From: Amphiscolops sp. MND2022
Lineage: Eukaryota
NCBI GenBank assembly: GCA_964187785.1
Contig: OZ076409.1
Coordinates: forward strand, 30,878,001 to 30,938,000
Length of the DNA: 60,000 nt
Direction of reading: 5' to 3'
Below, one piece after another: positions 3,713-53,436 of the stretch (its first letter is position 1; the number at the start of each line of letters is the position of its first letter). The notes below the pieces were generated by a model. It ran no database searches and was not told the origin of the DNA. It worked only from the letters and a program-made list of their open reading frames with translations. The position numbers and the translations under genes were made by a program.

Positions 3713-3769
3713 TTTTTCCTAACCAAAACTTTCTTGTTGTGAAAAGTTTCCCAGTAGTTTTCTACTTGA

Positions 3770-17866: not shown

Positions 17867-18229
17867 TGTCATGATACAATCATGATACCTTTACAAAAAT
17901 TCGATGACAGAATGTACTTAGCCAATAAATGCTGTGGACCAATCAGAGGCTGACAACACCGAGATGGATGGCGATACAACGAAGTGGTCGAACATAAGAA
18001 CAGAAGATAACTTTCTCAATCTTAAGAACACTCGCTTTAACTGTTGTAAATAGTATTTCTCAGTTGTGACTTCTCTTCAATTTTTCTTCAACAATAAAAC
18101 TAATTTCTTCAATAACACTTTATTCACTCTGAGTAAAGGAAAATAACCCAGGCTAAATCTCAAGTATAAAACGATACAAAATGTTCTTTTCAAAATTCAT
18201 AGTCCTTCGCTCGGACCAACCTCATGACA
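17867..18229 (+). repeat. 5' LTR of env-carrying Gypsy element
   Basis: Direct repeat of 40344-40706, roughly 27 mismatches by eye (~92-93% identity); TG...CA ends with an 8-bp inverted repeat. Confidence 0.93.
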
Positions 18230-18242
18230 TGATGACAGGAGT
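18230..18242 (+). promoter_or_regulatory. Degenerate primer-binding site (tRNA-Leu-like)
   Basis: TGATGACAGGAGT directly after the LTR; 2 mismatches to TGGTGTCAGGAGT, the complement of a tRNA-Leu 3' end. Confidence 0.55.
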
Positions 18243-18340
18243 CTCTTTTCCTGTTCACTCAGTTCTCCTGAATGACTGAAACACGACGACCTCTGATTAA
18301 AACATAGCTATGTTCTATTCTTAAATTTGAATATTTCTAC

Positions 18341-27300: not shown

Positions 27301-28700
27301 GCGCAATCGAGCCAGAAATACTGTAATTACTGCAACAAGTTCGGACACATACTTTCACAATGCTGGTTTCGTCCACAACAACATCAACATCCAGCTCTAC
27401 CCTATACACAATACTCTGCGCCGAACTTCACAGCCGCGCAACTTATGATGCAGCCTCAGTCGATGGTACCCATCCCACAAATGCCGCAATACTGGTCATC
27501 CCACTATGATGCATATCAACAAGCCTCCAATCCAAAAAACTAAGTAAGCCACACATTGCCCATATTTCTTCTTCTTTATCTACTAATATGACTAACTCTT
27601 CACCCTTTTTAAACATCCTTTACAGCAAATGGTGACTCTGTAACCACCTTTGGTACTTTTCGAGCTTTTAAAATTGCAGGTGAATCTTTCACCGAAACTT
27701 TTATTTTAATGCACACCATGAACCAAACAATTTTGGGACTACCATTTTTTGAGAAAAATGATATTTCTATTCACCCTAGAACAAGAACGCTTAAACTACC
27801 CAATTTGACTTTACAACTGACCGAACGGATACATAAAGATGGAAAAATAAGTTCTCTTACTCCAAAGAAAAATCTTTTCTTACACTCTGTTCAAAATTAC
27901 TCGGTACAACCGAATACATCCGAAATAATCACTTGTTCTCTCAGCTGAATCCTTCTCTGAAGGAACAGTAGCTATCGTAGAACCGAATCCGCGTTTCGAA
28001 AAACAAACAGGACTTTGCGTTACCAGCGCAATTGTCAAACTGAACGACCAAAAACAAGTTTCCCTTGGGATACTTGATATCTTGCTATACAAAGTAACAG
28101 TTTTAAAAAATGTTCTTGTTGCGAAAGTAACCATCTTGACAGCCAAACAAGCTCAATACTTGCATCCTATCAACCCTGATCTTCTCCTTGACCATTTAAC
28201 TAAAAGTATTAACGGTCTCATTGAAGACTCTGAAACCAAAGTATACCCATCAACTGATGAGTTTTGGTTTCCTACTACGCAAAATTGCAAAGACCCAGGA
28301 AACCTCACAGGAATTCACAGAAGAATTTATGATGAGATCGTTGCTCTTAAAGCACGAGAAAAACTACAACCAGACAAAAATCCAGAAGACCGAAAGAAAT
28401 TTCTATCACAATTTACGTGGGAAAATTCTGTTTTTAACGCTGAACAGATTAATATTGTTGAAACGTTACTTTTATAATATCACCAAACTTTCGCAAAACA
28501 TCGCTTAGACATTGGAGCAAATGAAGAATTTAAAGTGAAACTTACCCCTGAAAATGATAAGCCGATGTCTACCCAAGGTCCACCGACCCCGATCCACTAT
28601 CGCGATGAAGTCCTAGTGAAATTGGCACTTTTACAATATTGGGGAGTGATAACAACCTTGACGTACTCGAAGTACTCAAGCTCAATTTTTGCCCTTCGTA
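18341..28700 (+). repeat. Four tandem copies (~2.63-kb period) of leader-gag-protease-RT N-terminus
   Basis: The aaaactcagc junction recurs (ctcagc at 18345, 20981, 23621, 26250). Copies 1-3 break at SPIF(A/V)VRK and restart; only copy 4 continues into RT. Confidence 0.95.
26327..27543 (+). pseudogene. gag: gag (copy 4 of 4; others at ~18422, ~21058, ~23698)
   Basis: FKGTEKENLNEF..QLE...LHLKGGALTFF capsid-like region; N/Q/W-rich linker; CCHC knuckle CNYCNKFGHILSQC; ends ASNPKN*; internal stop/frameshifts. Confidence 0.85.
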
Positions 28701-31671
28701 AACATTCGGGTAAATTGCGAATTTTAGTAGACCTCAGACGAATCAATCATTTAATCAGGCATGATTACGATAATCACAATTTTCCCATAGCAACATTAGC
28801 AGATGTAAATTCGCATCTTGCAGGTAAGAAGTATTTTGCTAAATTGGATTGCAGTCAAGCGTGTCATGTCCTGCAAATGGCTGACCCACTGTCAGTGCAA
28901 CTGCTGGCATTCAATTTTCTTTCAAGGAAATTCGCATATTTGCGCTTAGCTCAAGGACTAAGCCGCTCAGTTAGCGCCTTTAGTTCCTTTATGCGAAAAT
29001 ATCTATACCCTTGTATAGTTGCCGACCAGTGTTTTCAATACTTTGATGATCTAGGCACTGCAGCCAAAACCTTTGAAGAGTTCATTGCCAACCGAGAAGC
29101 CATCTTTGAATGCGTTCAAAAGACAGGTCTAAGACTCACGCCCAGTAAATGTGAATTTGGTCTAAAGGAAATGACATTTTTGACAAATACGATCACAAGC
29201 GAAGGAATGTCTCCCAATAAAACGAAAGTAACAGATTTTTTAGCCACTCTGAAACCTCCTAAAACCATAAAGCAGATTCGACGATTTATTGGGTTTTCCA
29301 GTATTTTCCTTCATTCATTCCCAAACTTGGTGAAAAACTGCTACCCTTCTATCAATTGTTACGAAAAGAATCAGACATTGTTTTAACAGAAGAACACCAT
29401 AAAAGTATCATTACTTTACGAAAAAATCTTGAACAAGCATGTCAAATGTCGCTTCGACTACCTAAACCAGACGCACAATATGTAATCTTAACTGATGCTA
29501 GTTTCTTTGCGGCTGAATATGTCCTCTTAATTGAAGACATTTCCATTGATCAAACAGGCAAAACTCACAAGACATATGTGCCAGTCTCTTTTGGTTCTAA
29601 GTATTTCACTCCAACCTATTTAATTTTGTCTATTTATGCTAAGGAATTTTAGTTGTGCACTTTGCATTTGACACATTTGCACACATTTTATAGGGAAGTT
29701 CTAAACCAGTGTTAGTTCTTACCGATAATAAATGTTTAACTAGATTTTTCCAAGCTTAAACAATTCCGTGAAGCCTTTGGACATGTGTGGATCGCGTTTT
29801 GAGTTTTAATTTTTTCCTTGGTCACATACCAGGAAAAGCAAATGCAGCGGCAGATTATCTGTCTAGAATTCATATCCAACCACACACTAAACTCGAACTT
29901 CGCTTTAATTCTAAAATACCTGTAGCTGATGTCCACCTCCATATGGGCATGCGGGTCCCTGACAATTCTGTAAATTCATTTAAATTTTACTGTGAAACGT
30001 TCAGTCTTCCGAAAAGTCTTCGTGAATCTTTTCCCCAAATTAACGCCCTCCATTCGCCAAACCCTTAGGATGATTTGGACTTCTCTGATAATCTGACACC
30101 CTTAAACTTGCGTGCGGAACAACAGAAAGATATCACTATTAGACTAGTATTATCATGGTTAGAAACAGGCCCGCCTTCTGATTTTCCTTAAATGAGCACG
30201 GAACTGCGAAAGTATCTCAAACACTTTGACCGATTAGAAAACCACCATGGTATTTTATACCGTAAATTTTTTGATGATACTGGCAGAATTTTTTTTGCCA
30301 ATACGTTGTTCCTAAATATTTGCGAAATGAAGTTTTCTATCGAGTACACAATAGCAAGTTTGCAGGCCACCCTGGCATTGCTAAAACAGCAGAACTCTAT
30401 CGTAAACACTTCTATTTCCCTGGTTTTGTTGAATTTTCAGCTAACTACGTGAAAATTGTAGCTCTTGTCTTCAAATCAAACCTGGTAAACACCAAACGTT
30501 GAAAACACCACTTTTGTCCCTTGCGACTGAAAAATATTATCCGGGTGATATGCTTCAATTAGATCTCGTAGGAAAACTACCAGAATCTGTTGGGTACACA
30601 CATACTTACAGCCAAAGACACTTTTAGTAAATATCTTTTTGCGACTCCTCTGCGCAATGCTAGCGCACCGAATGTTGCAAAACAGTTTTTTCACATTTTT
30701 ATGAGATCCGCCTATATACCAAGAGTTGTTCTCTCGGATATGGGAGCCGCGTTCACCTCTCGTGACCGAATTAAGTCGCTTACTGGAAATCAAACTGGAA
30801 TATGCCACTGTCAAACACCCAAACTGTTGGGTCCGTTGAGTGCTCTCATGCGTCTCTAGAACAATATCTTGGCATCTAGGAAAACAAAATTAAACGCGAT
30901 TGGCACCTATACGTAGACTTAGCCGTGTTTGTACATAATACAGCGTATCATGCATCCATTGGATGTACTCCAACCTTTTTGTTCCATGGCCGACAACACC
31001 ATTCACAACTTGATTTACGATTTGATAACAAACGTTTGCAAACACTTGAAACACGATACGAATTTACGAGTACTCTTCAAGATAAAATGAACGAAGTGTT
31101 TTCCCTAGCACGTGATGCTACTATCACTGCTTACAACAAATATCGACATTTTTATGACCGAAAAGCGTCAGCCGCCCCGTTGAAAAAACATGCCTTTTGT
31201 CTACTTCTAAATCCAAAACTTTCGAACACAAATGATCATATGGGAAAATCACTCACAAAATGGCTACCTCTGTATCCAGTTGAATCTGTACTAACGAACT
31301 CGAATTACCTTTTTCGAAAGGTAGGCACCATTTACACACAATGTGTACATCGAATTCGACTTCGTCCCATCACACCACAATATACAGTCGATGACCTTGC
31401 TCACATTAACCAGTCTAATTTTGTTCCTGATCCGTCTACTCGATACGTCTCAGAATCTGTTCCTTTTGACCAGGCTCTTCCAGACCGTTTGACTGATCGA
31501 ACTTTTACTACGGCCGACGAAGTTGATGATATGCCTGCCGTCGTATTTCACTATGTTCTAGGTCGCGTGCCACCGGCGCCACCACCGCCCCCCGGCACCA
31601 TCGACACCCCAGGCTCTCCTGGTACCCCCTCCCAGTCTACCGCAGCTTTTACATGTCTTACCTCAACCTGA
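27540..31671 (+). pseudogene. pol: pol (protease-RT-RNase H-integrase), multiple frameshifts/stops
   Basis: LRILVDLRRIN, FAKLDCSQA, QYFDD (RT); ILTDAS and HIPGKANAAADYLSR (RNase H); HNSKFAGHPG, AKDTFSKY, VLSDMG, HNTAYHASIGCTPTFLFHGR (IN). The protease LIDTG motif is seen in upstream copy 2 (~22421) but is deleted in copy 4. Confidence 0.92.
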
Positions 31672-32090
31672 AGTCCTCCCTGACCGCGACTTCCTACAAG
31701 CAGAAAATCATGCTGATCTCCCTCCCGTTCTCTATCAAGCTAGGCTTGATCCTTCGACTGTACATTTCCAAGATCAACACCATCAATCGTTTTTCGTTTC
31801 TTCCTCCTCAGGAACACCATTTTCCTCAGTGAATATGCCCAATTCTTCGTTTTCCCCACCCCAGAAACAACATTTACTTCTGACGATCTTTTTACTGTCG
31901 CACAGCCGACTTCTGGTATAGTAACGACTATTACCTCTTCTACTCGTCACCCACCTTCAATGCATTCTACCCCTATTTCGAGTCATACCTCACCTTCCTA
32001 CTTTCCCAGTCCTCCTGGTTTAACCCATGAACCTATGCCGACCCTAAACTTGAAATCATCAGGTTTCAAATCTTACCATTCTGAACGAAC

Positions 32091-32125
32091 TCCTCCTCCT
32101 CCTCCTCCTCCTCCTCCTCCTCCTC
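32091..32125. repeat. (CCT)n microsatellite
   Basis: About 11 perfect CCT/TCC units in the Pro/Ser-rich region after integrase. Confidence 0.9.
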
Positions 32126-33558
32126 GTTTTCGGGATTTTCAGATAAGCTCGTAAACCGAGGACGAGCCATTGCCTCACCACCTTCCAATCCTCATCGCTG
32201 ACACGCTACGCCTCTATTTGACCTTTATAATACCCCTACTTATTCAAGTTATCCTAATACCAAACCATATTATTTTCGCCAATCGCCATCACGCATTTCG
32301 CGTCCTACTACCCCCATACCTTCAACCCCGCCCTCTTTGGCATTAAACTCCCCTACTTCCTCTTCTCTTTTTGTTGGAATTCCGTTATACCATCCATCAA
32401 CCACTCCTGTGTGACAAACCACCGACCTAGCTGCCTCTATTCGAAACCATACTGTCCCCACTACTGTTTTTCGTAAAACTCATACCACGAATACTCCATC
32501 CACTGTTACGATTACCACCATCGCTTCTTCTAATCGTCGTGACACTCGTTTACGACCCAAACCGAGCCGCACATCCTTTTTTGGTTCCAAACCATGGAAA
32601 TATACCACTTTCTACCTTATTTTTTTATATCATTTTTTCTATGATTTTGGAAAAAGTTTTTTTTTCTCAACCCAACCTTTCTCAAGGTACCCTTTCCACT
32701 TCCCACTATCTTCTGGCTTCTCTCTAGCTCCTAATTAACCCACCTAAAGCTCTGAATTACCCCCCTTTTCTACGATGTTTTTCGATGAAACTTCTGATTT
32801 TTTTTGAAAAATCGCTGTTTTTCGAGTTTTTGGCCATAAATTGTATCATAGTCCTTCTCTATGGACCCATATGATACCCCATTCTCACTGTGGGATCCCT
32901 TGCGCCACCTAGGTGTAATCTGCAGGTCCTTGGGTTCCATCCTACCCATTATTCATAGCCGTTTTCCCCAAAAATATGACCTTTTTTTGACCCCTGAAAA
33001 ATCTGACCTTCGAAGACCCCTAAAATTCTCATTTTTTGGATTTTTGATCCCGAAATAGCGGTGATCCCCCTTTCTTACCCCAAACTTCCGATTAGGGCCA
33101 AAAAATAGGAAAAATCTAAAAAAAAATTTAAAAAAAGTTTTTCTGGGGCGTTTTTTGGCCCTCTTCTCTCACATTGCATTTTTTGCCAATTTTATGTGTT
33201 TTTCTCTTTCTTTTTCACCCAGAATGGCCACCGAACCCCCCTACTAGTTCCCTACGGTTTTACTACGCATCAAATATTTCTATACCTATGGTTTTTATGG
33301 GAGTTTGATGCAAAAAACACGAAAAAATACTTGGTTTTTTTAAATTTTTCTCATATTTCTCGAAATAAAAGTGCATTTTCTTACTTTTAGGTTTGCATGG
33401 AGCTACTTCCACAGGCTTCCTGCTCTTCCTTCTCTCCCCAGGGATCCACAACAGGCCCTCGTACTCTCACTGATGTCTGTAATCTGATGCAAACATGCAT
33501 ATTTTTATAAAATCACCTAGAATCCCTAACTGACTCTCTGTGTAATATTCAATATTAC

Positions 33559-34845
33559 TCACTCTGGCTCAGGCAAATCGGGTAATGGTTCGCAATGGAA
33601 GCGAGTCCGAAACTTCTCGCCTCCTTGGATGGCTTGGCACAAGAAGCTGCCCCCTCGCCCATTGCTTTCTGGTCCGTACTTGTAACGGATCCAGCCCGCC
33701 ATGTTCCAATATTGCCAGTATACAACGAGTTCTGTTTGTAGTACCCAGGCAGTTTTTAAGATCTGAAACCATTCTATTGGTCTCTCATAGCCCATTACTT
33801 TTACACTGGAAGTACACACCTGATAAGGCAAACATCTGACCCTTACCGCCGCTTCTGAAATGCTGGCCGTCACTTTTGCGCACTCTTGTACCAAGAAATC
33901 GTTGGGTGCGGTCCCAAGACACGTGCGGCAGTACTCTTTAATTTCGGCAGTCTGCTTTGCCTGAGTAGCTGCCACTCGTAGACCCTTGCACTTTCTACCA
34001 GGTGCACTGTTCTTCCGTTCTAGATATAAAGAATTTTTTTGCTTATCCTGCATTCTTCATGTTAGACTTTTATTTTACATTAACTACCTGATTTCCTTCC
34101 GACCATCAAATAGTATACGCTGGAGAAGAAACACTCGCCTCCTACTTCTGCCAGCTCGCCCAATGGCTCTTTCCGTTTCGGACAATCTAATACCACTGCC
34201 GTGTTACTGGACTTTCTCCCTCTGATGGGTTCCCGGACACACGTATACCCGAACTTCTCACAAAGTTCAACCCTCCGTTTCAGCGGCACAGGCACTTACC
34301 ATTGTGTCCGCTTTCTTTCGTCACTTTCGAAAAAGCATGTTTGGCAATTTTGCAAGAACCTGTTAATACTTCTATATGTACCCTCTTTGCCTCATATAGT
34401 ATAACATTTCTTAGATCACACAAAAAAAAACAAAAAGTCGATGTTTTATTGTTATCATATTTTACTTGTAATTCAAATGAAATGCCACTTACTCTTCAGC
34501 TAGCGCCTTCAAGCCTCCTAAACCTGCTGGATATGCCCATCCGGCTCCAGACAGGGCATCGATGTGAAGGTGTAACCCCCGGTTGTGCTTTTTTCCGACA
34601 TCGCTCTCTCCTTCTTTCCACTTCTTCACATGAAATTTGTATAGGAGATTGTCCACTTGTTCTTTCGTTGGAACTGGCAAGAACTCGTTTCTTCTTCCCT
34701 TATACATAAGCACACCATTTTCTACTTTCAGACTGCGACACACCTTCTTAAAGTTCTCCCTCTTCTCTGCCGTCTTTAATACTGACGTATCGAGCACTCC
34801 ATCTTTCAAATACTTCACAATCGCTTCGTGCAAGAATCGCTCCAT
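33559..34845 (-). CDS. Putative spliced antisense gene: integrase-type HHCC zinc finger plus OTU-like cysteine protease (probably pseudogenised)
   Basis: Predicted exons 34845-34493, 34359-34088 and 34019-33559 join in frame via GT-AG introns of 133 and 68 nt. Motifs LLYKFH..KKHNRG..EFLQNCQTC; GGECFFSSVYYLMVG..LR; EWFQILKTAWVLQTELVVY; RFHCEP. One in-frame TAA at 34298-34296. Confidence 0.55.
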
Positions 34846-35365
34846 GATGACACTCTGAAAAAACCGACCGACAGATGGAATTCAGCCTATACTCTTATCA
34901 CTGCTATTGACTCCTCACTCTCAGTTTCTGACGAATGTAAAAGACAGTCCAGCCAAACTTTTTGCTTTATCTCACTGTTTTACTGTAACTAATTTTTTTC
35001 TTTCTTCTCGTCTCTTTTCATTTTTTCTTCTTCCCTTTTCTCTGTTTTTTTTTGCTTCGGTCGTACTGTTTACATTTCATACTAACTTTAGAGTTTTTTT
35101 ACAATCTAATTTTTTCTTCGAGACTTCACTGTTTTCTCTTTTGTTTTTTTTCTTCTCTTTCTTCTATTTCTCCACAACTGTTTGACTGTTCTTTTTTTCT
35201 TTTGCTTTTTCACTTTCATCTTTCTTTTTTTTCTCGCCTTTTTAGTTTTTCTTCTTCTTTAGTCGTCTTTCCTTCTGTTTTTGTTCATACGCCCTTCTAG
35301 CTTTTAGTCCGACTGACTTCTTTTTCTCCCTTTTTGGTATCTCCTTTTTCTTTTCTTTTTCTTCC

Positions 35366-35865
35366 TTTTTAGTCGGCGCATTTTAGAAGAAAATGAGCCC
35401 GACTATTACAGTGGCAAGTTTTTTTTCTTTTTTTTTCGTCAGACCACAGAATGTATGCGTAGTGGACACTTTTTACAGAACTACTAAAAGTACTGCACCG
35501 GCAAGCGGAATCATATCTGAGTTACTGCAAAGGGTCCCCCCTTTCGTGTACTCAATTTTTAACGTAAGATACAAAACCGGACGGAACTACAGGGTCCCCC
35601 CTTTGAATTTTTTTCGGCACTGTGCGACTTTTTTTTCGAAATTTTTTTAATGTCCCCAAAGGGTCCCCCCTTTGAGTTTTTTGTTATTTTGCAACAGAAT
35701 GTGTGTTTATAAATCAAAAAGGGTCCCCCCTTTTACATTTTTCGGCACTACGCGACATTTTCCGAAAGAAAAATTTTTTTCGAAAATTTCAAGTTTTTTC
35801 CAAAAAATGTTTTGCGCTTTTTGAGACTTAGATATAGCGCCGACTTGAGACGTTCCCGTCTTGTT
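35366..35865 (+). mobile_element. Helentron-like non-autonomous element
   Basis: TTTTTAGTCGGCGCATTTTAGAAGAAAATGAGCCCGACT start; GCGCCGACT + GACG-TTCC-CGTC-TTGTT end; internal AAGGGTCCCCCC repeats. Confidence 0.8.
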
Positions 35866-36131
35866 TCTTCTTTTTCAAACTCTGCCTGTTGTTTTCGGCA
35901 GGCTCGACAACACAGGCACAACACTAATGTGATGAGCACTGATAAAATCATGTTCACCCATACCCCAACGTGACTGGCCCCGGTCTCTTCTGTCACTGTC
36001 GCGGGTGGCAGAGAGCACTCAGGTCGGGGACTCTTCGTGAACGAGCAGAGGCGCCCCCCTCGTTCAACGTATGTCCCCTCAGGACAACACCACGACACAA
36101 AATATTCAAATTTTGCCATAGGGCAATTCAT
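35866..36131 (-). CDS. Small Cys-rich single-pass membrane protein, antisense in the LTR element, C-terminus cut by a Helentron-like insertion
   Basis: ATG ORF with Cys-rich N-terminus, hydrophobic VGVWVNMILSVLITLVL, then CLCCRACRKQ and K/E-rich sequence. K/E-rich coding-like sequence resumes beyond the insertion (<35366). Confidence 0.5.
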
Positions 36132-36566
36132 TTTTCATCTTGACTCTGAAGAACTCGAATACACATGAAAGACTTACGTTAGATGCTAGCAGTAGAAAGA
36201 GAATATCGTTGGTAATATTGTAGATAATCAACAAAGCTAACAATAAGACTCAAACAAGACAACTGTTTGTTAAACGAAGAATTCTCAAACTCAAATATGA
36301 CACTTGGTCTCACTGATTGAACATTCGACAAAAATTCTCAAACCTCCGGTTTAAATAGCAAACTACGAATTTGGTCATATTTGAATCGTACGATTTCCAT
36401 TTTTGCTCGATCATTCGACTTTCGAATCTTTCTTGTGATCACACCACCTATTCGAAGAAAAGAATTTCAACTTTGATATTTTCTTTACACAAATTTGCTC
36501 TTTCCATTTGAAAAGCTAAATCATTACAAATCAAATTTCTCCACATATCAATAAATATCAAGATCA

Positions 36567-38597
36567 TTGTCCTATCGTGTTTTTGCCCCCTACGGAATGT
36601 TTGGGATTTGCATATCTCTTTTGTTTCTCTTCTTTCCATATTTGGGAATTACTCAATCGTCGATTGCTGCCTTCGACGATTCCGATGGTCCCTTGAAAAA
36701 AGGCATCATCTTCCATGAGAACAAAAAAATATTGCTTGCTGAAAAGTTTAATAATGTGGAATTTCTTCTTCCCTTCCCCCAGTTCGCCGTATCCATCAAA
36801 TCTGACCTCAAGCACCTTCTCACCATCTTGGACTCCATGTGGGAAATGCCCACCTTTAACTGCTATTTGAACTTCACCAACACATCTATGCAGGGACTTG
36901 ATGTCAACTGGCTTCTTCCTGAGGAACAAAAAGAAGTCACTGCTTCTGAACAAGCTCTCTTGAAACTCCAACATGAAATCGCTGCCTTTTTGCCGCCTCC
37001 ATCTCCCAGTACTTCTAATGCTGATCGCCCCCGCAGAGCCCTGCCTCTAGCAGCAGCCGCTGTTGGAGCTATTAGACTTTTGGGCACCGGTATTGCTATG
37101 GGCTCTGGCGATTGTGGTTTGTCAGGTATCTTCGGCACCTGTCAATCCCGGGAGAATGCTGATGCCATCAACCGCATGTTTCAGATGACAGAATTCCTCG
37201 CCGAGAACCTGCAACATATTCACTCCTCTACGAATGAGAAATTTTTTGTTGTAGGCAAAGAATTACAAGCGATTAGGGACCTTCAACAGCAAATGGCTGA
37301 CATACAGAATGCCAACTGGCAGACAAGAACTTCTCAATTTGATGCCTTCCGTGATGATATTCACAGGATGAGGAATTGTGATCAGCTGTTGTTCACCCAA
37401 CAACAGATCAATTTTAATTTCGACACTGTGGCGTCACTTCTTTCTCTTTTTTATTCAAATGTGAAATCATACCGTGCTGCGCTGTTCGCTTATCGCCTCA
37501 ACCTCTTGAACAGCTTTCCGGCTTTATTGAACAAGTTTGTCCCTATGTCACTTCTCGACCGCCCGTCACTAGAGAAAGTCCTCACAATCGTACAGAATAT
37601 TCAAAATAAGGCACGAGACCGTCTCCCTTTGGCAATTCCCTTTCAGGAGACATTGTCATATTACGAATCTCAGCTTCTACAAGACATTGTCGCTTAACCT
37701 GAAGGATTGCTCATAACCATGTCAATCCCTTTGGCTTCGCGTCAGACGGTCCTCGCGACATACGAAGCGGTACCTTTGCCCATGCCCCAGCATGACGATG
37801 ACATGGCAATGATATGGGATACAAATGCTGATTTTCTCGCCGTCTCTGAAGATGGTCGCGAGACTGCCAGTGTGTCTCGTCAGCAACTGGAACAATGCAT
37901 TGGGTCGTCTCGTTACAACATTTGCCAACAAGGATTCGCGACTGAAGGTTCAGGTTCTTCATGCCTGTCTCTTCTTTTCTTTGGCAACTTTGTCCAGGCT
38001 ATGAAAGTCTGTGACTTGGTTCCTTACCAGTTGCACATATTTGAACGAGCAATTAACCTCAAATTTGACATTTGGCTGATCCTCTCTGCTGATGCTGACT
38101 TTGAACTTCGCGAATCAGCTAGCAATGATACAGCTCACTTGTCCACTCTCACATACCCAGGATGCCGCATTTGTATATACACGTTACCATGTGGTCATCA
38201 ACTTTGTGGACCCAATATTTTCATCCGATCTGATTTACAATCATGTTCTCGTGTGCCCTCAATCAAGATTCATGTGGATCTTCCTGACCCTCTTCAGAAT
38301 GTGCTGAGTGTCCTTCCTTCCATCGAGGAACTTCCTTCCTTCAGCACCAAATCTTTCGCCAACCTCGCATTTTTACGTTCTCTGAAAAAAGAATTAAAAT
38401 ATATCCCTCAAACATCGCTCCAGGATCGAGAAGCGCGTCAGAAACTCGCTAAACCGATTGTCATGCAAATGACTACTTTGAAAAATCCTTTTCGACGCGA
38501 ACTTAGCCACGTGACCTCTTTTACATCTACCATAATAATAGGCATAGCAAGTTTTATAATCTCTATGTTGTTATATTTGTTATTCAAGTACATTTTT
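36567..38597 (+). pseudogene. env: Envelope glycoprotein, class I fusion (F-type), one internal stop, tail displaced by insertion
   Basis: ORFs 36567-37697 and 37707-38615 are in the same frame, separated by a single TAA. Signal-like MFGICISLLFLFFPYLG; furin site RPRR followed by fusion peptide ALPLAAAAVGAIRLLGTGIAMG; heptad region; Cys-rich region; C-terminal TM IIIGIASFIISMLLYLLF. Confidence 0.85.
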
Positions 38598-39083
38598 AGT
38601 CGGCGCTTTTCTTAAGAAAAGAGTCCGACTATTACAGTCACTCGTTTTTTTTAATTTTTTAATTTAAGACAGACTCGAAGCGACGAACGTTAAAATTAAC
38701 GTTCAACTACTAAATAAGTACTAAACTACTGGACCGCTAAAGGCAAACGGGAGTGCATTAATTTACTTTTTAAACGTTACATACAAGCCCGGACGGGACT
38801 AAAGTCCCCCCCCTTTCGATTTTTTTTTCGGCACTGTGAGACTTTTTTTTCGAAATTTTTTAATGTCCCCAAAGGGTCCCCCCTTTGAGTTTTTTGTTAT
38901 TTTGCTACAGAATGCGTGTTTATAAATCAAAAAGGGTCCCTCTTTTACTTTTTTCGGCAGTGTGCGACATTTTCCGAAAGAAATGTTTTTTTTTCGAAAA
39001 TTTCAAGTTTTTTTCCAAACAAAAATGTTTTGCGCTTTTTGAGCCTTAGATATAGCGCCGACTTGAGACGTTCCCGTCTTGTT
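38593..39083 (+). mobile_element. Helentron-like non-autonomous element inserted just after the env TM segment
   Basis: TTTTTAGTCGGCGCTTTTCTTAAGAAAAGAGTCCGACT start; GCGCCGACTTGAGACGTTCCCGTCTTGTT end. Confidence 0.8.
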
Positions 39084-40343
39084 CATCGTTGTAATAATTT
39101 ACATAAATTCATGCCATTCAAACATATTTACAAAGATAAAGATAATATAAAACGTAAAATACAATTGAAACCAGTGCTATCTGTACCTTCACAACACCTG
39201 AACGTAATACAAAATGACCCCAACTTCCGTTGGCTTGGTCGTTGTCTTCTCACAGAACACCCTAATGATGATCAAAAATACACAACCATCCCTCTCTGAG
39301 TTGTCAAGGCGTTCTCTGATAGCGCCAATCAGCCCGTCCTTTTGGATTCTTGAGTGCTGTGTGTTTTGTTTTACGTACCTTTCTATCGTACTCTCACGTT
39401 ACTCTTTTAACCGCTTCACTCTAACAGTCTCTGACTGCTTCACAGTCAGATTCTAACATCAACCTCTTTTCTTCTTTAACACTATATGCTCTGTTATAAT
39501 GATACTGTAACACCTTTGCTTTCTCTCTTTTTCTTTGGTGTCTTCTCCGCAGTTCTGTTCATCATTAATATCTATACAACCACTTCTTTGACATCTTCTG
39601 ATAACTGAGCGATATTTTTCTCACTGATGTTCGGAAGATATTTTGTCCTCTTCTTTCTTCATTGTATATTTTATTGTCTTTTGCTCTTGAGTCATCGCTT
39701 TGTACTTGACTTCTGCCCCCTCCTTCTGCTAACTCTTTTATTCACATCCGCTATCAATGTATTTACCCTTTTTGACGCATTGTACACTTTCCGCTTGTAC
39801 ATTTCTCTTCGTGTTTGTTATACACCGATTATCAAATCATAGTACTAATAGACGTTTCCGTCCCCTGTTATCTCTTCTTTACACTGTTAATCATCGATTA
39901 GGCTCTCTCTAGCCTTATCTGCTGCTCCCGCAGCCCGTCTCCTTGCTCAGCAAATACCATAGCTTGCACTTGGCACGCGTTGCCACGTGCCTACTCGATC
40001 ATAAGTTTTGTTAGCAAACACCGTTACTCTTTCTCTGCTTCACTCCGTCAATATTGACTCAGTGTTTGCTGATTTGCTGGCTTCTTTTAATCAGGCCACA
40101 CCTAAAACTTCTTGCATAACCTTTTCTGCATCGCATGCTTCACATGCTTTTTCTTTTCATTCTTCTTTTCGAGACCCCCCCTTATGTCATATGTATCTTT
40201 CATTTTTTTTCCTTTCGGGCATTTGTGTTGGCTCTTCTTGGTTTCACGGATTTATTGCGCTCTTTTGTTTCATGCCACTTCACCATCTCCGCCCTGAAAT
40301 GGACTACAACCCGGCAGTTCCCCTTTTTCTTAAAAGTAGTGAG

Positions 40344-40706
40344 TGTCATGATATAATCGTGATACAATTACAAAAATTCGATGACAGAATGTATTTAGCC
40401 AATAAAAGTTGTGGACCAATCAGAGGCTGACAACACCGAGATGGATGACGATACAACCAAGTGGTCAAACAGAAGAACAGAAGATAACTTTCTCAATCTT
40501 AAGAACACTCGCTTTAACTGTTGTAAATTATATTTCTCAGTTGTGGCTTATCTTCAATTTCTTTTCAACATTGAAACTAATTTCTTCAATAAAAATTTAT
40601 TCACTCTGAGTAAAGGAAAATAACCCAGGCTAAATCTGAAGTATAAAACGATACAAAATTTTCTTTCTAAAATTCATAGTCCACCGCTCGGACCAACCTC
40701 ATGACA
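40344..40706 (+). repeat. 3' LTR of env-carrying Gypsy element
   Basis: Direct repeat of 17867-18229; preceded by purine-rich AAAAGTAGTGAG; followed by TSD CTATA. Confidence 0.93.
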
Positions 40707-40711
40707 CTATA

Positions 40712-41689: not shown

Positions 41690-41902
41690 GATGATGAGAT
41701 GCTGAAGAAACGCAAGAGGCCCTTGGGAGATGCTCAACATTATTGTCCCGTTGAGTTGAAGGAGCACTCGGTGTTGTTCCCCGGAAATTCAGAAATTGCG
41801 GCCAAGTACAGAGAGAAGACGTACTACTTCTCCACTCCAGATGCAAGAGACAAATTCATGAGGTCACCAGATAGCTATGTCGCCGTCGAGAAACCCCTCA
41901 AC
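41690..41902 (+). CDS. AK9: Adenylate kinase 9-like, exon (YHS-like domain)
   Basis: AG|DDEMLKKRKRPLGDAQHYCPVELKE...AAKYREKTYYFSTPDARDKF...KPLN|GT; 213 nt, phase 0/0. Confidence 0.85.
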
Positions 41903-41974
41903 GTGCGTTTACCCTCTTATTTTTCTTATTTCCTGAGTATTTTCACATTGAAGATGAATTAGCTTCTCATTTAG

Positions 41975-42125
41975 GTTCCTGCAATGCGTTTGTTCATGCT
42001 CGGAGCAAAAGGAGCTGGAAAAACTACTCATGCCAGAGAATTAGCCAGCAAATTGGGAATCTTCCACATTTCTTTCTTGGATAGACTGCAAGAAATGATT
42101 ATTGCCAAAACCAAAAAGAAAGTCT
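41975..42125 (+). CDS. AK9: Adenylate kinase 9-like, exon (P-loop)
   Basis: TTAG|VPAMRLFMLGAKGAGKTTHARELASKLGIFHISFLDRLQEMIIAKTKKKV|GTAAG; Walker A GxxGxGKT. Confidence 0.88.
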
Positions 42126-42363
42126 GTAAGTGTTGTTTAGTTTACAAGAGCATCACCAAATGAAATTATGTGTGTTATATTCCCTTCAGTATTCTTGGAC
42201 TATTCAGTTTTTGAATATGATTTATTGCCTGGGAATTTCTATAAAGTACAGGTAACAAATTGCATACAACAAAGAATATCCATTGCCTGAAGTTGGCCAA
42301 GATTCGATTCAGATGTTCGTCATTAATTTGTTTCTGCATTCTGTGAATGCTTCAATGTTACAG

Positions 42364-42506
42364 TACGGACAGGAGAAGAAGATGAAGGCGCGGAAGAAGC
42401 GGACGAAGAAGTGGACGAGGGACTGGACACGGAGACAGTAGGTGGCAAAGGTGGGGAGATCACCGAGGCCACTGATGAGACCACAGGCACAGACGAGGAA
42501 AAGGAA
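42364..42506 (+). CDS. AK9: Adenylate kinase 9-like, acidic linker exon
   Basis: TTACAG|...RTGEEDEGAEEADEEVDEG...DEEKE|GTGAGT; phase 1/0 fits both neighbours. Confidence 0.75.
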
Positions 42507-42859
42507 GTGAGTATTATTGCCTACCATCGCTCATACATAGTACATACATTCCTTTCGTGGACACAAATTGCCGTATTCTAAGTCAAATTTACAAACATTG
42601 TTGGGGCGAAAAGTGTGGGTTGCTAAATTAATTGTTTTCTGGACTTCAACAATGAGACGTTGTCTAAAAAACGTTTAAAAAGTTAGGAATTGATTTTAAC
42701 ACTAAACACCAAAGATAATGATAAAATGTAAGGGGACATTTTTCCATTTCTTTCTTTCTTTAAAACTATCAGATGCGTTAGTAAAGTAAGTTTATGTACT
42801 TTCGAGTCGGGCGGTGATTGCCAATAAACCATTGAATGAGTACTTTGGTAAAAGAATTA

Positions 42860-45800
42860 GGCATGGGTCCTACGTCTTAGAGTGGGGGTTGGGTTCCTGC
42901 TGCGCACAGAACATTTTAAGAATAATTTCTTTCGAAGATAAATTGCTGAGAGATAAGTTGCCTTAAGAGAAACTGTTGGCAGGTAGTTCCTGATCAAGCG
43001 GATCAAACCATAGTTTGCCTGCAATTTGTTGGGCATACTTCTATATTCTGTAAGTGATTTGTTTGGTGCCAACTCGTCCAATTGGTCGAAGAAATGGCAA
43101 AAATTGGACCTGAGGAATCGGGAATTCTTGGAATTGATCTTGCAAATTCGCCAACGAAGAATCCACACAGGAGTTTTAAGAATGCATATAATTTCAAGTA
43201 TCTACACAAGACGGTTGAAGAATCCACGCAGTTTTGAGAATCGAGAGAAACAAGTGAAATCTTGCTTTTAGCAATTCGTCACATGTTACGTAGGTATTAG
43301 TGCAAGAATCCAGGAAAGTATTTCACTCCATTTTCTTAAATCGTGAAAACACGTGTTGTACAGTTGAAGAATCCACACAAGACTACAACAGATTTGTTGC
43401 GGTCACTGTTTTTCCTCGATTGGCGTCGTGTTGGGCGGCACCTTGATGTGTGCTCTCTTTGACGAGCCAAAATGGTCGGGTGTGAGGGCACCTGTATTGC
43501 TGATGTCATTGTAGACCTTAGTTATTGGTCGGTTATTCAGGAACGCTTCAATCTTCCCGGGCGGTGGCGAAGGTGTCATCGCCTAGCGTCTGAGATTCAA
43601 TGACCGAATTAAGGGCGTCTTTGCAGGAACGTATATGGCGCCCACATGTTCCACGTTCCACCGAATTGAGGAACGTGTGGAATAAAATTCCATTTGATTT
43701 CGTTGTTTGCTAGGAAATCTTGAAGATGTGAACGCTTGAAGATGAGTTGTAAACCATTGGCCGCGACTGATGAGTTCTGATGTTTACAGGGTGGGCAGAA
43801 ATTGAAGGCTTTGGTAGAATCCTCCTTTTATAAGTTCTTGGAACATCCTGCCATCTGATGGAAGGGCACTGGGAGTTGTCGTGTGAAGTCTTTCTGAAGG
43901 TAGCATCAACTACGTCCCATGCCCAAAGCGACGTATACGCTGACAAACTTGTTGAATTTGAAGGTAACGGGTACTGTGATGAGAACGGAGTTTACGTTCG
44001 TATGAGACAGTAGTGGTGTGGCCTGAGATGCTCCAAAGCTGGTCTGGTGTGGGCGTTGCTGTGATGTGAACTGGGTCTCCCAAACTGATAGCGATATTCG
44101 TCTCATTGGCTGGATGTTATAGTTGTGTAAAACAAAGTTATGCTTGAGGGTGACATTTCTCAAGATTTGCCAAATTCGTTGCTTTGAAGGGCAATCGTGG
44201 ACAAAGTGAGATCCTAGACTATTCAAGCACAAGTTGTGCTCTTGGACGAGTTTCCGTTTGGCTTGCAAGAGAGACTCGATGAACATGCTGCAATAAGATG
44301 GATGGCGTATTTGCTGGTCCAAAAGAAGTCTGCCATAGTCGATTTTGATTTGATGTTGCTGTGTTCGGTCGTCTGTTTTTAGTCGGTGGTTTTGAAGAAA
44401 ATGCACGACCCTTACGGTAGCTCATTTTGTTTTCGTCAATTCAACGCGATCGGTCCGCTTCTTTGTTCGTTTGGTCTACTTCTTACAGAGCCGAGGTTGA
44501 CCCGGATGTTAGTTCGAATATAATTTTTCAAAGTTCACATGTAACGTTTCGAATTCGGATAAAACGTTTTCAAAGTTCGGATATAACGTTTTCAAAGTTC
44601 AGATGCTGTTTTTTTTAAACGCGTACGGTCCACTTTTTTTGTTTATTTGTTCAACATCATCAACACGAAATACGGACGTCCAAACCATACTTGGAACGCC
44701 AGAACCTCGTCCAAAACAAAAACATCGATGTCCAGAACATGGAAAACATAGGATCTCCTCTTTGTTGTTTTTTACTATGATTTTTCTGGCACTTTGCGAT
44801 TTTTGAATTGTTTTGGATTCCAGCAAAGGGTCTCCCTTTCGTTTGTTTCGATATTTTGCAACACAATAGATGTCAAAAAATCCCAAAAGCTCTCCCTTTC
44901 ACATTTTTCGTTACTGCGACACTGTTCAAAATACTCATTTTAATTTTATTGTTGCGGAATTTGTTTAAAATCTCTCAACGGTCCCCCTTCATTTTTTTTC
45001 ATATATTGCAACCAACTGGAGTTTCACAAAACCCAAAGGGTCCCCCTTTCACAATTTTGAGCCTCAGACATAGCGCCGAATTTGGCCGTTCCCGGCTTGT
45101 TTCCTTTGCATGAAAGTTTTCATTGCTGTGTTGCTTTACGGCTGTTTGTTGGAATGTCTGTGATCATTTTGTCGCACACATGGGCCAACTCACGTAACCA
45201 GGTGTTAAAATTGATAAGGCTATGTGATGTGATTCTCTTTGACGTTTTCTGTTTTTCTTTGTGTTGCAGTTTGTCCAATGCGAACTGAACAAAGACTGTC
45301 GATTGAAAGACATTCTGAATTCCTAAAAACGGAACGTTTCCACTAAATTGTTCAAAAAGGTTTGGACTTCCATGAGAGAGGCTTTGTGATGTGTCGAGGG
45401 TGGTCTTTGTGTCTAGTTGGGCAAGGAAGATGCTAATGATGATGTTTGGTCGTCCAAATGGTCGCTTCAGTTCTTCCATGGCAGACTTGTGCTTATCCGG
45501 ATTGCAAGGAAACTCAGAGATTGCTTCATTGGCTTTCCCTGTTGTCAGGGTTTGCAAGTGCGTCACTCTGTCGGGTGCTGAAAGTGGCTGCTTGTCAATC
45601 AACGTGGAATAGAGTCCATGCCATGTGTTCCATGGAGCTCTGATCGGTTAATTGGTCTCCCAGTGAGTCAGAAAGATGTGGCAATGCATCTGTTGAAGGT
45701 TGATTGTCGTGACGTGTAGGTCGTTTACGGCTAGATGGTAGTTGTCTCTGTGAAGGTTCTACTTGATTAGTGAGTTGATTCATTTCTTTCAGCATATGTT

Positions 45801-46120
45801 GGAACTTCCTGACTGTGCCATCGATTTGGTTTCGTGAATTAGTGAAACGTATGATATAAAATCTTCAGTGATGTCTTCTGGCGAGCTATAAAAAAGATGA
45901 GTTGTCATCTGATCAGCTTCCACGAAATGATCATTCAAACTGCGTTGTGCCTGGTTTAGGTCAAAACTTTGGTTTTTTTCTTCGATTGCAGTCTGCTGAA
46001 CAAAGACTGATTCGTTCAAACGCCGACGTTTAGCAAAAACAACGTTTCTTTGACTGTTGGAGGGCTTTCGGCGTTGGCCTGGCACCACTGAATAACCTAA
46101 ACTGAGACAAGAGTGCAGCA
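42860..46120 (-). mobile_element. Degenerate BEL/Pao LTR retrotransposon remnant (boundaries uncertain)
   Basis: DUF1759-like gag (HLQTLTTGKANEAI...AMEELKRPFGRP, 45120-45602); decayed multi-knuckle region (KRKLVQEHNLCLNSLGSHFVHDCPSK...KHNFVLH); pol-like remnants near 43000-43300. Confidence 0.7.
44376..45101 (+). mobile_element. Helentron-like non-autonomous element inside the BEL/Pao remnant
   Basis: TTTTTAGTCGGTGGTTTTGAAGAAAATGCACGAC start; GCGCCGAATTTGGCCGTTCCCGGCTTGTT end. Confidence 0.75.
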
Positions 46121-46853
46121 CAGAAAATAAGGGTGCAAACTAAGCAAATTATGAAAATTGTAAACAACAAAGCAAGAAATTTATAACTGAAATTTTAAAA
46201 CTGAAACAAATAGGAACTCATTTTATACTAGTATAAAGTGTCAAAACTAGCCACACTAGAAAACGGAAGCTCAAAGATCTAATAACCTAGTTTTAGATTA
46301 GTGTGAAATTGAGGAACTATATATGCCAGAAAATCTAGGAACAGTGGGATAAGTAAGCTGCCGTTAGGTTACGGTAATGTTTAGAAACCATATACGTTAG
46401 AATACTTAGGATCCTAAATGGGAAAATTAAGAAAGAGCATTCAAAGTGTTTTCAATTTTGTTGAGCAAGGTAAAATACGGGGCATGTTTGTCTTTTTGTT
46501 CGACAGGGTGTAGATTCAGTTGCCGTCGAAGTTGGGCGCCATGATGAAATATAATAGAACCTAATTCATTTCTTTCTTTAAGTTTATCAGATTCGTCATT
46601 TAAAAGTTTTATGGAATCCACTTTTGTGTCTCTTCTGGAGTTTTTGTTAAAGTCAACTTTCAGCGGTGATTGTCATTGAACCAATGAATCAGTCATTTTT
46701 GCTGAAAGTCCCAGTGAAAAAGTGCAGCGAGTCATAGACTTCTCCATTACAGATACCGATGCCTTGAAAACTACTTACTTCCGTTTAAAAAATGATACCA
46801 TTTGTGGCACGTTTCATCTTTCAGTTTTTATTTGGTCTCCATTGAAAATGTAG

Positions 46854-46975
46854 ATTGCCGATGACTTGACAGAAGAGGAGGAATCCATCAGGGCATATCT
46901 CGCGGATGATGATCCACTGCCGCCTGAAATTTTGGAGACAATCGTAAACCAGTGGTGGCACCGAGAACCCTTCAA
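46854..46975 (+). CDS. AK9: Adenylate kinase 9-like, exon
   Basis: TAG|IADDLTEEEESIRAYLADDDPLPPEILETIVNQWWHREPF(K)|GTGAG; phase 0/2. Confidence 0.85.
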
Positions 46976-47298
46976 GTGAGCACGGAATTTTCATGTTCCA
47001 CTTACTAATACAAAATTGCTTAATTTTTTATATTGATGACATTTGAAGAACATATCTGTGTTGTATGATATTTACACTGCTAAAAGACCTCAGCTCCGGA
47101 ATCAAGGGATTATGCCACATAGTTACTTGAATTGTTTCGAACGGGCTACTTGGTGTCATTAAAAAAGGACTCAAGTTTCAAAATAGTTTTTTAGAACGAT
47201 TTCAAAACCGAATGTTTTGTTTCCTTTTTCTCTAATGTCGTGCGGTTACGAACCTCAAATATGCGATGTTTTCGAAATTGAGTTTGTATTTGCCCAAG

Positions 47299-47518
47299 AT
47301 CCACAGGCTTTATTCTGGAGGGGTTTCCCCGATTGCAAGACGAAGTAGCTTTTCTGCAACAGTCTGGCCTTTATCCGGACTGTTCACTAATTCTTACCAC
47401 GGAAGACTCCGATGTCGTCGACAGACTTTTACCACCCAAAATGAATAAGTGGAAGATAAGAAGAGATAAACGAATGGCCAAGAAGCAGAAACAACTAGAA
47501 AAGAAACAAAAAGAACGG
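47299..47518 (+). CDS. AK9: Adenylate kinase 9-like, exon (GFxLxGFPR motif)
   Basis: AAG|STGFILEGFPRLQDEVAFL...VVDRLLPPKMNKWK...KER|GTTAG; phase 2/0; adenylate kinase signature. Confidence 0.88.
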
Positions 47519-48209
47519 GTTAGATTATTGATCGCTTGTCTTTTATTAACAATCTTGGAATTGCTATGTAACATTCTTCCAAAATTTTTTTACTGAAACA
47601 TGACTGATTGGAAGCATAACGAAGTTCAAAGGTTGGGATTTGGTTTGGAAACCTCTCGATGAACTACTAATTTTGTTTGCTTTACTTCACACCTTTGTTT
47701 GAGAACTAGAGATTTCATGTCCCAACTTGTAGTCGGTTGTCGAAAACATGTCACCTTAGCACAAAAATTTTATATTTTGTGAAGGTTCTATCTGTGTTTT
47801 GTCTTGAGTAGTTGAATAATAGAGTTTAAGGAAGTGAATTGTAAAATTTTGAATCAAATTTAGTAAAACAAGAGAATAGCAGTGATGCATATATCGGAAA
47901 TTGTTTTGAATTTGTTGTCCGCTTGAGCAATTGTTTTTCGAGTTTTGATTGCACCTGATCTGGTGCTGGCTTGCCATTGGCTGGTTGATGCCATTGATCT
48001 CTATCACGTCTATATGGACATGTCGTCGAATTTTTGTATCATGGTGCAGATTATGACACAATATTATGGATGAATTCTTCAAAAAGTGGCGAGCCTCTCA
48101 ACGTTGAAAACTAGAAACCTTTTTCAGACGTTTAGTAAGTCTATACTTGGCAACATTTCCACGACATTTGCTTGAATAGAATAACATCTGAAAGTTTTTT
48201 GTGCTACAG

Positions 48210-48769: not shown

Positions 48770-49444
48770 GGTGTGCGTTCATTTCACCCCAAAATCATTT
48801 CACCCCAAAATCATTTCACCTCATATCACTTCACCCCATATCATTTCACCCCACATTCATCTCACCCCACGTTCATTTCACCCCACATTGATTTCACCCC
48901 ACATTCATTTCACCCCACAATCATTTCACCCCACGTTCACTTCACACCATATTGTAATTATACAAAAGCGTCTGGCCTTAATTAACCAATTACCAATTAA
49001 ACTTTGATGCCTACTGTCTTTGAGTCAGCTTTGATTTGATTTTTTTGCCGTAGAAACACCGAATAAAAAATTTTTCGCTGAAGATTCGCAACATCCACAA
49101 TTGTAAATTTTGATTGACAGAAGAAAAACGTTTTTTTTCAGCGCCTTTTTCAGAAGTATTACAATTCCAATAAATGAAACTATTCAGTTTCGAATTTGTC
49201 GTTCACATACAAAGCATCGTTTGCTTATCTAATTGGTAATTAGATTCAAAACGTTTTTCTATTAGCGCTAAGATTGAAATTGGGTGGCTTTAGTAATTAA
49301 TCTGAGACGCATTTGATAATTTAAATGTGGGGTGAAATGAGCGTGGGGTGAAATGAATTTGGGGTGAAATGAACCTGGGGTGAAATGAACCTGGGGTGAA
49401 ATGAATGTGGGGTGAAATGACATGGGGTGAAATGATACTAAACC
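48770..49444. mobile_element. Mutator-like foldback MITE with arms of ~16-bp tandem subrepeats
   Basis: TCATTTCACCCC repeats at 48779-48950 mirrored by GGGGTGAAATGA repeats at 49329-49434; GG...CC ends; 9-bp TSD CTTTTTAAC/CATTTTAAC. Confidence 0.75.
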
Positions 49445-50522: not shown

Positions 50523-50769
50523 TGTTATACGGTACACATACCAGACTGATATTTCGGTGACGTTGTCAATCAAAAACCCAAACCTTTTATAGAACTATCT
50601 AGATTATGTTTGTACATGTTGGTAAACATACCGTCCTAGTCACTTCTTGAGACTACATCATTTAGTACAAAACTTTAGATAGAGAAAAGACTGTTTTGTG
50701 ATACTCTTATTTTCAAGAGAGATTTTAGATAAAACCTTTGTTTTCTTATTCGAACCAAGAAATAGAACA
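50523..50769 (+). repeat. 5' LTR
   Basis: TGTT...AACA; direct repeat of 56629-56875. Confidence 0.95.
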
Positions 50770-50781
50770 TGGCGCAGTCAG
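50770..50781 (+). promoter_or_regulatory. Primer-binding site (tRNA-Ser-like)
   Basis: TGGCGCAGTCAG directly after the 5' LTR. Confidence 0.65.
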
Positions 50782-50818
50782 CTATTTGAATTACCCATAT
50801 ACACTTACAACAAAGAAA

Positions 50819-52816: not shown

Positions 52817-52980
52817 ACAGAAAATGGCTCGGACACGAAATTGACGAAACGGGTATCAAACCGAACAAAGAAAAAGTAAACGCAATACTGGATTTGAAAC
52901 ACCCGGAAAATCAAAAACAACTGAAGTCATTTCTCGGCGCGATACAATACCTCGCAAAGTTCCTACCGAGATTATCGGAA

Positions 52981-53436
52981 AACAAGCCGAGAACGGCCAA
53001 AGTCGGCGCCATATCTAAGGCTCAAAATTTAAAAGGGACATGAAAAAATTTCCCGAAAAGAAAATTTTAATGAGATTTTTAAACAGTGTCACAGTGCCGA
53101 AAAATGTAAAAGGGGGACCCTTTGCGATTTTTGACATCCATTGTGTTGCAAAATGTCGAAACAAATGAAGGGGGGACCCTCTGATGCAATCCAAAAAACT
53201 TCAAAAAAGTCGCATAGTGCCGAAAAAAAGTGGGGCTAAGGTGGGATCTTTGGACGTCTGTTTTGTTTTTTCTTCTCGTTTTGGACGCGCTTCTGAGGTT
53301 GGAGTTGTTGGGGTTTGAAGTTGTTGAGGTTTGAAGTTGTTGAACAAATGAACAAAAAAGTGGACCTTACGCGTCTAAAAAAAACTACCCACTGTAATAG
53401 TCGGGCACATTTTCTTCTAAAATGCGCCGACTAAAA
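52981..53436 (-). mobile_element. Helentron-like non-autonomous element inserted in pol
   Basis: Reverse complement of the family termini. Removing it rejoins FLPRLSE to KTEKLRRLL within an A-run, with no TSD. Confidence 0.85.

Follow-up and report, generated by a model that had tools for sequence, protein, structure and literature searches.

A broken copy of a Ty3/gypsy provirus with a probable F-type envelope gene in an animal genome

Organisation of the provirus

The window, a stretch of 60,000 nucleotides, contains an LTR provirus in which env is placed between pol and the 3′ LTR. The features outside env are listed below.

17862–17866, no strand: 5′ target-site duplication CTATA; same 5-mer at 40707–40711
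17867–18229, + strand: 5′ LTR, 363 nt, with ends TGTCATGA...TCATGACA; 92.6% identical to the 3′ LTR (27 substitutions, 0 indels)
18230–18241, + strand: candidate primer-binding site adjoining the LTR, starting with TGA and not TGG
18338–28702, + strand: four broken copies, in tandem, of a gag–protease–5′ RT unit of ~2.63 kb (self-BLAST; tblastn of sibling Pol)
27625–32600, + strand: pol, in the order PR–RT–RNase H–integrase (Pfam RVT_1 and RT_RNaseH_2; frameshift-aware alignment to natural siblings)
35366–35865, + strand: HINE/DINE-1-like non-autonomous Helentron in the pol–env spacer, 83–90% identical in parts to the insertion in env, with the same ends
40332–40343, + strand: purine-rich, PPT-like tract (10 of 12 purines in the sequence), directly before the 3′ LTR
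40344–40706, + strand: 3′ LTR, 363 nt, paired with the 5′ LTR
40707–40711, no strand: 3′ target-site duplication CTATA, matching the 5′ copy

The paired LTRs with TG...CA ends, the target duplication and the position of env between pol and the 3′ LTR are among the features by which errantiviruses are recognised; env belongs to a Ty3/gypsy provirus that is an errantivirus in the operational sense. Four variant 12-mers of the degenerate candidate primer-binding site (18230) were absent from the eLife table of primer-binding sites. The tandem gag–protease–5′ RT copies are 3.1–4.6% apart and would therefore, if the LTR clock holds, have been duplicated after the provirus was inserted. Pol was originally described as heavily broken, and alignment to natural siblings bore this out with 9 stops and 11 frameshifts between 27625 and 32600. 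In the full-length relative P0313, Pfam recognised protease, RT, RNase H and integrase in order, and a search of the PDB with a sibling Pol returned Ty3 Gag-Pol as the best match (E 5e-43), followed by foamy virus (6e-24). The spacer between pol and env is 4 kb long and holds another HINE. Pol and env of the same subfamily were found on equal-sized contigs for 6 of 15 and 10 of 15 pol members listed, so their pairing is a family trait. Downstream of the provirus lie spliced adenylate-kinase-9-like (AK9) exons (41690–47596), which mark the host as an animal; of 13 candidates for an AK9 exon one matched, a protein from a fish at 52%.

The env gene and its insertion

Env occupies two blocks separated by an insertion, with the following features.

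36597–38591, + strand: env from signal peptide to transmembrane segment, 665 codons, aligned ungapped to residues 1–665 of natural 738-aa siblings; F-type fold
36597–36662, + strand: signal-peptide-like hydrophobic N-terminus (hydropathy peak at codon 1)
37026–37037, + strand: furin-type site RPRR (motif conservation among relatives)
37038–37100, + strand: fusion-peptide-like, Ala/Gly-rich hydrophobic segment (hydropathy peak at codon 149; near-invariant Gly/Leu columns)
37149–37367, + strand: long heptad helix, HR1-like (helix 199–271 of the model)
37695–37697, + strand: premature stop TAA at codon 367 (frame scan and sibling alignment)
38529–38585, + strand: transmembrane segment (hydropathy peak at codon 645; helix in the model)
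38593–39083, + strand: HINE/DINE-1-like non-autonomous Helentron, 491 nt, just past the transmembrane segment (subTIRs, stem-loop, sister copies)
39084–39299, + strand: env cytoplasmic tail including the stop, 70–72% identical, ungapped, to sibling residues 668–738

A homology search with the env frame returned 65 proteins, none of them named, and 1,027 representatives came up at E ≤ 0.001 in a wider one. Of the 29 members in the nearest cluster 15 were listed, and three of these are uninterrupted proteins of 738 aa that are 98.8–99.2% identical to one another. These natural siblings (P0069, P0077 and P0080) served as the reference for the env alignment, which fell into two blocks. The first (36597–38591) aligned over 665 codons with no gaps, 6.9–7.2% differences, one stop and no frameshift, and the second (39084–39296) over 71 codons with no gaps, 28–30% differences and no stop. 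This alignment places the start of env at ATG 36597 and identifies the downstream piece as its tail. The original prediction had described ~680 codons in one frame from 36567 with a single stop and no frameshift. The open frame (36555–38615, + strand) does have TAA 37695–37697 as its single internal stop and is free of frameshifts; the start is ATG 36597, and the last few codons belong to the insertion. The proposal that removal of the element at 38593–39083 would join env to 39084–39299 agrees with the uninterrupted 738-aa siblings, which carry a matching tail. The siblings hold an unbroken env and the window copy is broken; at most, it could be predicted to yield an N-terminal fragment lacking the membrane anchor.

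The insertion in env has a T-run and the subTIR AGTCGGCGC on its 5′ side, with an inverted repeat close by, and the subTIR GCGCCGACT with a stem-loop on its 3′ side. Its ends are T-rich and no target duplication was seen. There are four full-length HINE copies within the window. In the available text on HINE/DINE-1 elements (PMC4067079), the same traits are described, namely subTIRs, an inverted repeat near the 5′ subTIR, a 3′ stem-loop and a T-rich target that is not duplicated, although the reported subTIRs are 12–15 nt long and the subTIR match in the window insertion is 9 nt. Judged by its subTIRs, 3′ stem-loop, unduplicated T-rich target and interspersed copies, the insertion is of the HINE/DINE-1 kind.

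The tail differs from the siblings at 20 of 71 residues, four times the level in the rest of env (28% vs 7%, p 1e-7). Its differences are conservative (mean BLOSUM 0.45 vs −0.51), and 5 of the 20 need at least two base changes. Hyper-editing (A-to-G or G-to-A) was considered as a cause of this divergence and rejected, its pattern not being seen. The simplest reading of the sequence is that the tail was acquired from a sister subfamily, probably by template switching.

Motifs and predicted fold of the envelope protein

Signal peptide, fusion peptide and transmembrane segment were called from hydropathy, motif conservation and model helices. The cleavage site and the start of the fusion peptide (RPRR\|ALPLAAAAVG) are located at 37026–37067. 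All 52 relatives covering the site have R-x-x-R, and 45 of the 52 have the furin-type motif R-x-K/R-R. Motif position, hydropathy and the model helices agree with the original description of a signal-like N-terminus, RPRR\|ALPLAAAAVG, heptads and a transmembrane segment.

The structure of env was modelled as a monomer from a 60-sequence alignment, with X at the stop codon, and gave a mean pLDDT of 75. When the model was compared with the PDB by Foldseek, 129 matches had E ≤ 0.001 and all 40 of the 40 matches listed were paramyxovirus or pneumovirus F proteins (best E 1e-6), with TM-scores of just 0.2–0.3 over the query. VIA-align gave Z-scores of 8.0–8.1 to the F proteins of NDV, Langya virus, PIV3 and Nipah virus (285–337 residues aligned, rmsd 4.3–17.9), a Z of ~8 being near chance level. 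In BFVD, the top matches were an abalone herpesvirus protein (E 1.4e-19), chu-like virus glycoproteins and baculovirus F (E 1.6e-16). In the Atlas, the relative P0003 adjoins the Baculo_F and Fusion_gly clusters with a score of 0.95–0.96 and a low recognition value.

Sequence searches detected this relationship sparsely. Pfam matched no family in the window env protein or its sibling P0069, and the Baculo_F family was matched in 3 of 60 aligned relatives (best E 1.7e-4) and in 2 of 11 distant relatives, among which P0368 alone exceeds the Baculo_F cut-off in Pfam. A search of PDB sequences with the single env protein gave no match. A profile search of the PDB weakly suggested the influenza HA2 fusion-peptide region as a relative (best E 0.01), which was judged a compositional resemblance and rejected. 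Among viral contigs, none of 59 pattern matches to env was confirmed, and of 24 candidates in JGI metagenomes one was confirmed, a broken relative at 42% without context.

The predicted F-type fusogen layout was thus recovered by structure prediction and Foldseek, with matches to paramyxovirus/pneumovirus F and to baculovirus F. On the evidence of the model, the window env is a predicted class I fusogen of the F type. A link of env to herpesviruses would draw on a single rank in the structure comparison, where chuvirus glycoproteins follow closely.

Breaks in env and pol

Breaks in pol and env were counted as the union of three sibling alignments, and p values are one-sided. Env has one stop and no frameshift in 2,208 nt, and pol has its 9 stops and 11 frameshifts in 4,976 nt. 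For stops and frameshifts together the contrast is significant (p 0.005; p 0.017 with the insertion counted as a break), and it persists with the three upstream pro-RT copies included (p 0.014, or 0.047 with the insertion). Taken alone, frameshifts give p 0.018 and stops p 0.14. Lesion density is therefore lower in env, at 1–2 breaks per 2.2 kb against 20 per 5.0 kb (p 0.005–0.017), as had been suggested from the first reading.

Indels are unevenly spread along the provirus: there are none between the LTRs, 0–3 per 30–40 substitutions in pro-RT and 4–9 per 50–70 in gag, and 10 of the 11 pol frameshifts cluster within 2.8 kb (p 0.018). Normalised by homopolymer runs, the frameshift contrast has p 0.10. 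Homopolymer density as the whole cause of the indel contrast was rejected because the run-rich pro-RT part has a low indel rate, with few indels. Among siblings (15 fragments listed for each gene), breaks per private change, a rough and length-biased measure, were 7/82 in env and 14/105 in pol (p 0.23), and four of the seven env breaks end off-frame. From the sequence counts, the absence of any frameshift in env appears mildly unusual (p about 0.02–0.10).

Amino-acid decay and alternative explanations

All rate tests were comparisons at the protein level. P0073, a 100% match to the frame of the window itself, was excluded from the sibling counts, and P0286, a near-identical copy of the window locus, from the comparison of private changes in env and pol. 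The LTR clock predicted 50 missense codons and 2.6 stops in env, where 47 and 1 were observed, and 75 missense codons and 4.1 stops in the scored pol span, where 73 and 6 were observed. Private changes affect 4.7–5.5% of env codons and 5.7–5.9% of pol codons (p 0.28–0.53). In env they are spread evenly, with 17 in the 366 codons before the stop and 14 in the 298 after it. The mean BLOSUM of env changes, 0.04 compared with −0.45 for unweighted random changes, speaks to some extent against neutral decay, although changes that preceded the insertion would account for part of it.

We consider it very probable that the gene served a Ty3/gypsy LTR retrotransposon as its F-type envelope and is present in an animal genome as a dead copy that has decayed neutrally since insertion. 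Its decay would comprise the mid-ectodomain stop, the Helentron-type insertion after the transmembrane segment and ~7% amino-acid change. Env may look better kept than pol because it happened to escape any frameshift where indel rates differ strongly between regions, and also because it is the smaller target and was chosen for its intact appearance. Whether chance or longer selection explains the better preservation of env had been left open originally; the raw contrast is real, and chance together with regional indel rates is favoured.

Selection could instead have preserved env for a time after the death of gag and pol, through host co-option, for instance as a restriction factor or fusogen, or through complementation of sister elements, and have been lost lately. 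The deficit of env breaks relative to pol is real, the 31 private env changes fall below the 50 expected from the LTR clock (a wide interval, at 5.0–10.6% LTR divergence), and changes are depleted at moderately conserved env columns. At columns at least 50% conserved, differences from all three intact siblings number 16 of 44 against 24.7 expected (p 0.007), and the private changes 13 of 31 against 17.4 expected (p 0.08); at least some of this depletion is put down to changes that preceded the insertion. Where conservation is highest (columns at least 90% conserved), however, 7 of the 31 private changes are found, where 6.5 would be expected under neutrality and about 1 under selection. These columns have changed at a neutral rate, seven times the selected rate; between two intact subfamilies, only 6 of 178 differences fall on them (p 0.0007). 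Pol has the same rate of private change, env carries two independent breaks, and near-identical intact copies (3 of the 15 listed, 98.8–99.2%) are the pattern of a mobile element and not of a single domesticated gene. Amino-acid changes, in which protein selection should show first, thus lend no support to longer selection on env, and the sibling comparison (p 0.23) points the same way. The stop, the insertion and the neutral pattern at conserved columns also differ from what a host co-opted env, with an intact frame under purifying selection, would have. We judge selection of this kind very unlikely.

An env/pol contrast that predates insertion would arise if the provirus was recombinant or mobilised in trans, with part of pol already defective and the 3′ part derived from other templates. 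This would suit the clustering of the pol frameshifts and the divergent tail, whose conservative and multi-nucleotide differences are those expected of a sister subfamily. P0286 comes from another contig, matches 30925–31668 at 98% identity and has the same off-frame end, but it may just as well represent the second haplotype of the window locus or a copy of it made later. Missense divergence is no higher in pol than in env, and the other pol siblings listed that span the window breakpoints read through them; this origin of the contrast is unlikely. Assembly error, in the form of indels that gather in pol or of a spurious TAA, could in principle produce part of the contrast, and to this we give hardly any credence: one pol frameshift is common to the independent contig of P0286, most frameshift sites lie outside long homopolymers (runs of at least five near 2 of 12, against a background of 15%), and there are no indels between the LTRs. 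Neutral decay of a dead copy is thus the reading we adopt.

For intact members of the family, analogy suggests how env would act. As a type I membrane glycoprotein it would enter the ER and trimerise, and a cut at the furin site would expose the fusion peptide, as in paramyxovirus and baculovirus F. The heptads would then fold back, membranes would fuse and particles could pass from cell to cell, by analogy with F proteins and Drosophila gypsy. The anatomy and fold of env were seen directly in the sequence and model; cleavage, fusion and infectivity are inferred from these better-known proteins. That the element was once infectious, as originally proposed, is likewise suggested by its anatomy and by the precedent of Drosophila gypsy.

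Relation to known elements

Chary and Hayashi (PMC13524379) describe, in the available text, 1,512 env-carrying Ty3/gypsy elements from most animal phyla. Many of them are multicopy, and they combine an env of the F type with a furin site and a fusion peptide; such an env is thus already on record for Ty3/gypsy elements outside insects. According to the discussion there, germline infection by Env-dependent particles has been demonstrated for Drosophila elements only. The window element has in common with these ancient errantiviruses a Ty3/gypsy Pol and the order GAG-POL-ENV between LTRs, as well as an F-type ectodomain with signal peptide, furin site, fusion peptide and transmembrane segment, and it belongs to a family with near-identical intact copies. 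It differs in that the window copy is broken, and its likeness to them is one of features. By its sequence, the window element appears to fit this kind in every testable feature.

The taxon list in the available part of that survey has no Xenacoelomorpha, and acoel names are absent from its available text and seven supplements. Neither 'envelope' nor 'gypsy' appears as a word in PMC9911081, and our literature search, with subscription papers outside its scope, found no report on env-bearing retroelements in acoels. Similar Pol and repeat families suggest that the host may be an acoel, and if so its phylum is missing from the published survey, as far as that source is available. A single decayed copy carries little weight and offers a clean case of an 'intact-looking' env produced by neutral decay. 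The family comprises numerous unnamed subfamilies of F-type env, whose intact members are multicopy, within a single animal lineage. It is a data point on whether Ty3/gypsy elements with env are older than the bilaterian split, and would count for more with a xenacoelomorph as host.

Taken by itself, the herpesvirus match is no novelty, since alloherpesviruses have already been credited with class I-like fusogens (in the part of PMC13030845 available); 'abalone' and 'malacoherpes' are absent from the available eLife text. A joint reading, in which the env family both extends the host range and has a herpesvirus link, is rather unlikely, and its host-range part, taken alone, is somewhat probable.

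Among better-known fusogens, baculovirus F (Ld130; Pfam PF12259) and Drosophila gypsy Env have the same predicted fold as the window env (E 1.6e-16 to 1e-12), although identity is just 11–12%. The F proteins of paramyxoviruses and pneumoviruses (RSV, NDV, PIV5 and henipavirus) share with it the class I fold, the domain order and a cleavage site followed by the fusion peptide; identity is 9–14%, and the window env differs in having a longer ectodomain and a 70-residue tail and in being encoded by a retroelement. According to the available text of PMC9040795, lokiretroviruses are also LTR retroelements with an Env like the fusion proteins of Mononegavirales. They have been reported in vertebrates only and have a dual RNase H, whereas the Pol of the window family is closest to Ty3 among solved structures.

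Internal structure of the provirus

Within one LTR pair, the provirus carries four head-to-tail copies of ~2.63 kb comprising gag, protease and the 5′ part of the RT (window 18338–28702), with a divergence of 3.1–4.6% among them. A short repeated motif resembling actcagccaaaaa is found near 18344 and 20981 and may have been used at the copy junctions. Further into pol, the sequence of P0286, a protein relative of the provirus pol from another contig, is 98% identical to window 30925–31668 and has the same off-frame end, indicating that one pol frameshift is present in a second sequence, which is either an allele or a duplicate of this locus. The long pol–env spacer (32600–36550) contains minus-strand ORF pieces (33559–34881). 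One piece is similar to the zinc-binding domain of integrases (features of 0.93–0.94 in Atlas, a protein-cluster resource, with a low shared count); these pieces are therefore probably another nested insertion.

The env tail (39084–39296) differs by 28% from its siblings, the natural uninterrupted 738-aa env relatives, compared with 7% for the remaining env, and the tail changes are conservative. The tail is probably a recombinant segment derived from a sister subfamily. In a structural search of BFVD with a model of 36555–38612, the first-ranked match was A0A145VUZ2, an uncharacterised abalone herpesvirus protein, with baculovirus F ranking lower.

HINE/DINE-1-like elements and the flanking regions

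HINE/DINE-1-like elements, which are non-autonomous and of Helentron type, break up three separate LTR elements in the window:

35366–35865, HINE/DINE-1-like element
38593–39083, HINE/DINE-1-like element
44376–45101, HINE/DINE-1-like element
52981–53437 (minus strand), HINE/DINE-1-like element

To the right of the provirus, window 41690–47596 carries an adenylate kinase 9-like gene of the host, with exons for FAP206/YHS and ADK that match a fish protein at 52%; tblastn upstream of the provirus did not find convincing exons. One intron of the adenylate kinase 9-like gene holds HINE-split, Bel/Pao-like gag fragments (DUF1759; 43400–45650, minus strand). A second Ty3/gypsy element, distinct from the provirus and also HINE-split, occupies 50729–56286, with a 695-codon gag–pro–RT frame and integrase. 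At 48777–49437, a 16-nt unit (TTCATTTCACCCCA-like) forms inverted arrays that are MITE or foldback-like.

To the left, window 6700–17860 is a tandem array with periods of ~644 and ~1,348 nt, in which hAT-like transposase fragments, including a weak DUF659 match at 17272–17766, are intermixed with HINE/DINE-1-like 3′ ends (6.7–16.5 kb). The provirus is inserted in the last copy of this array. Window 1–5900 contains decayed minus-strand pieces with short ORFs of capsid-like and ATPase-like wording, which by their sequence give the impression of Polinton/Maverick-type genes.
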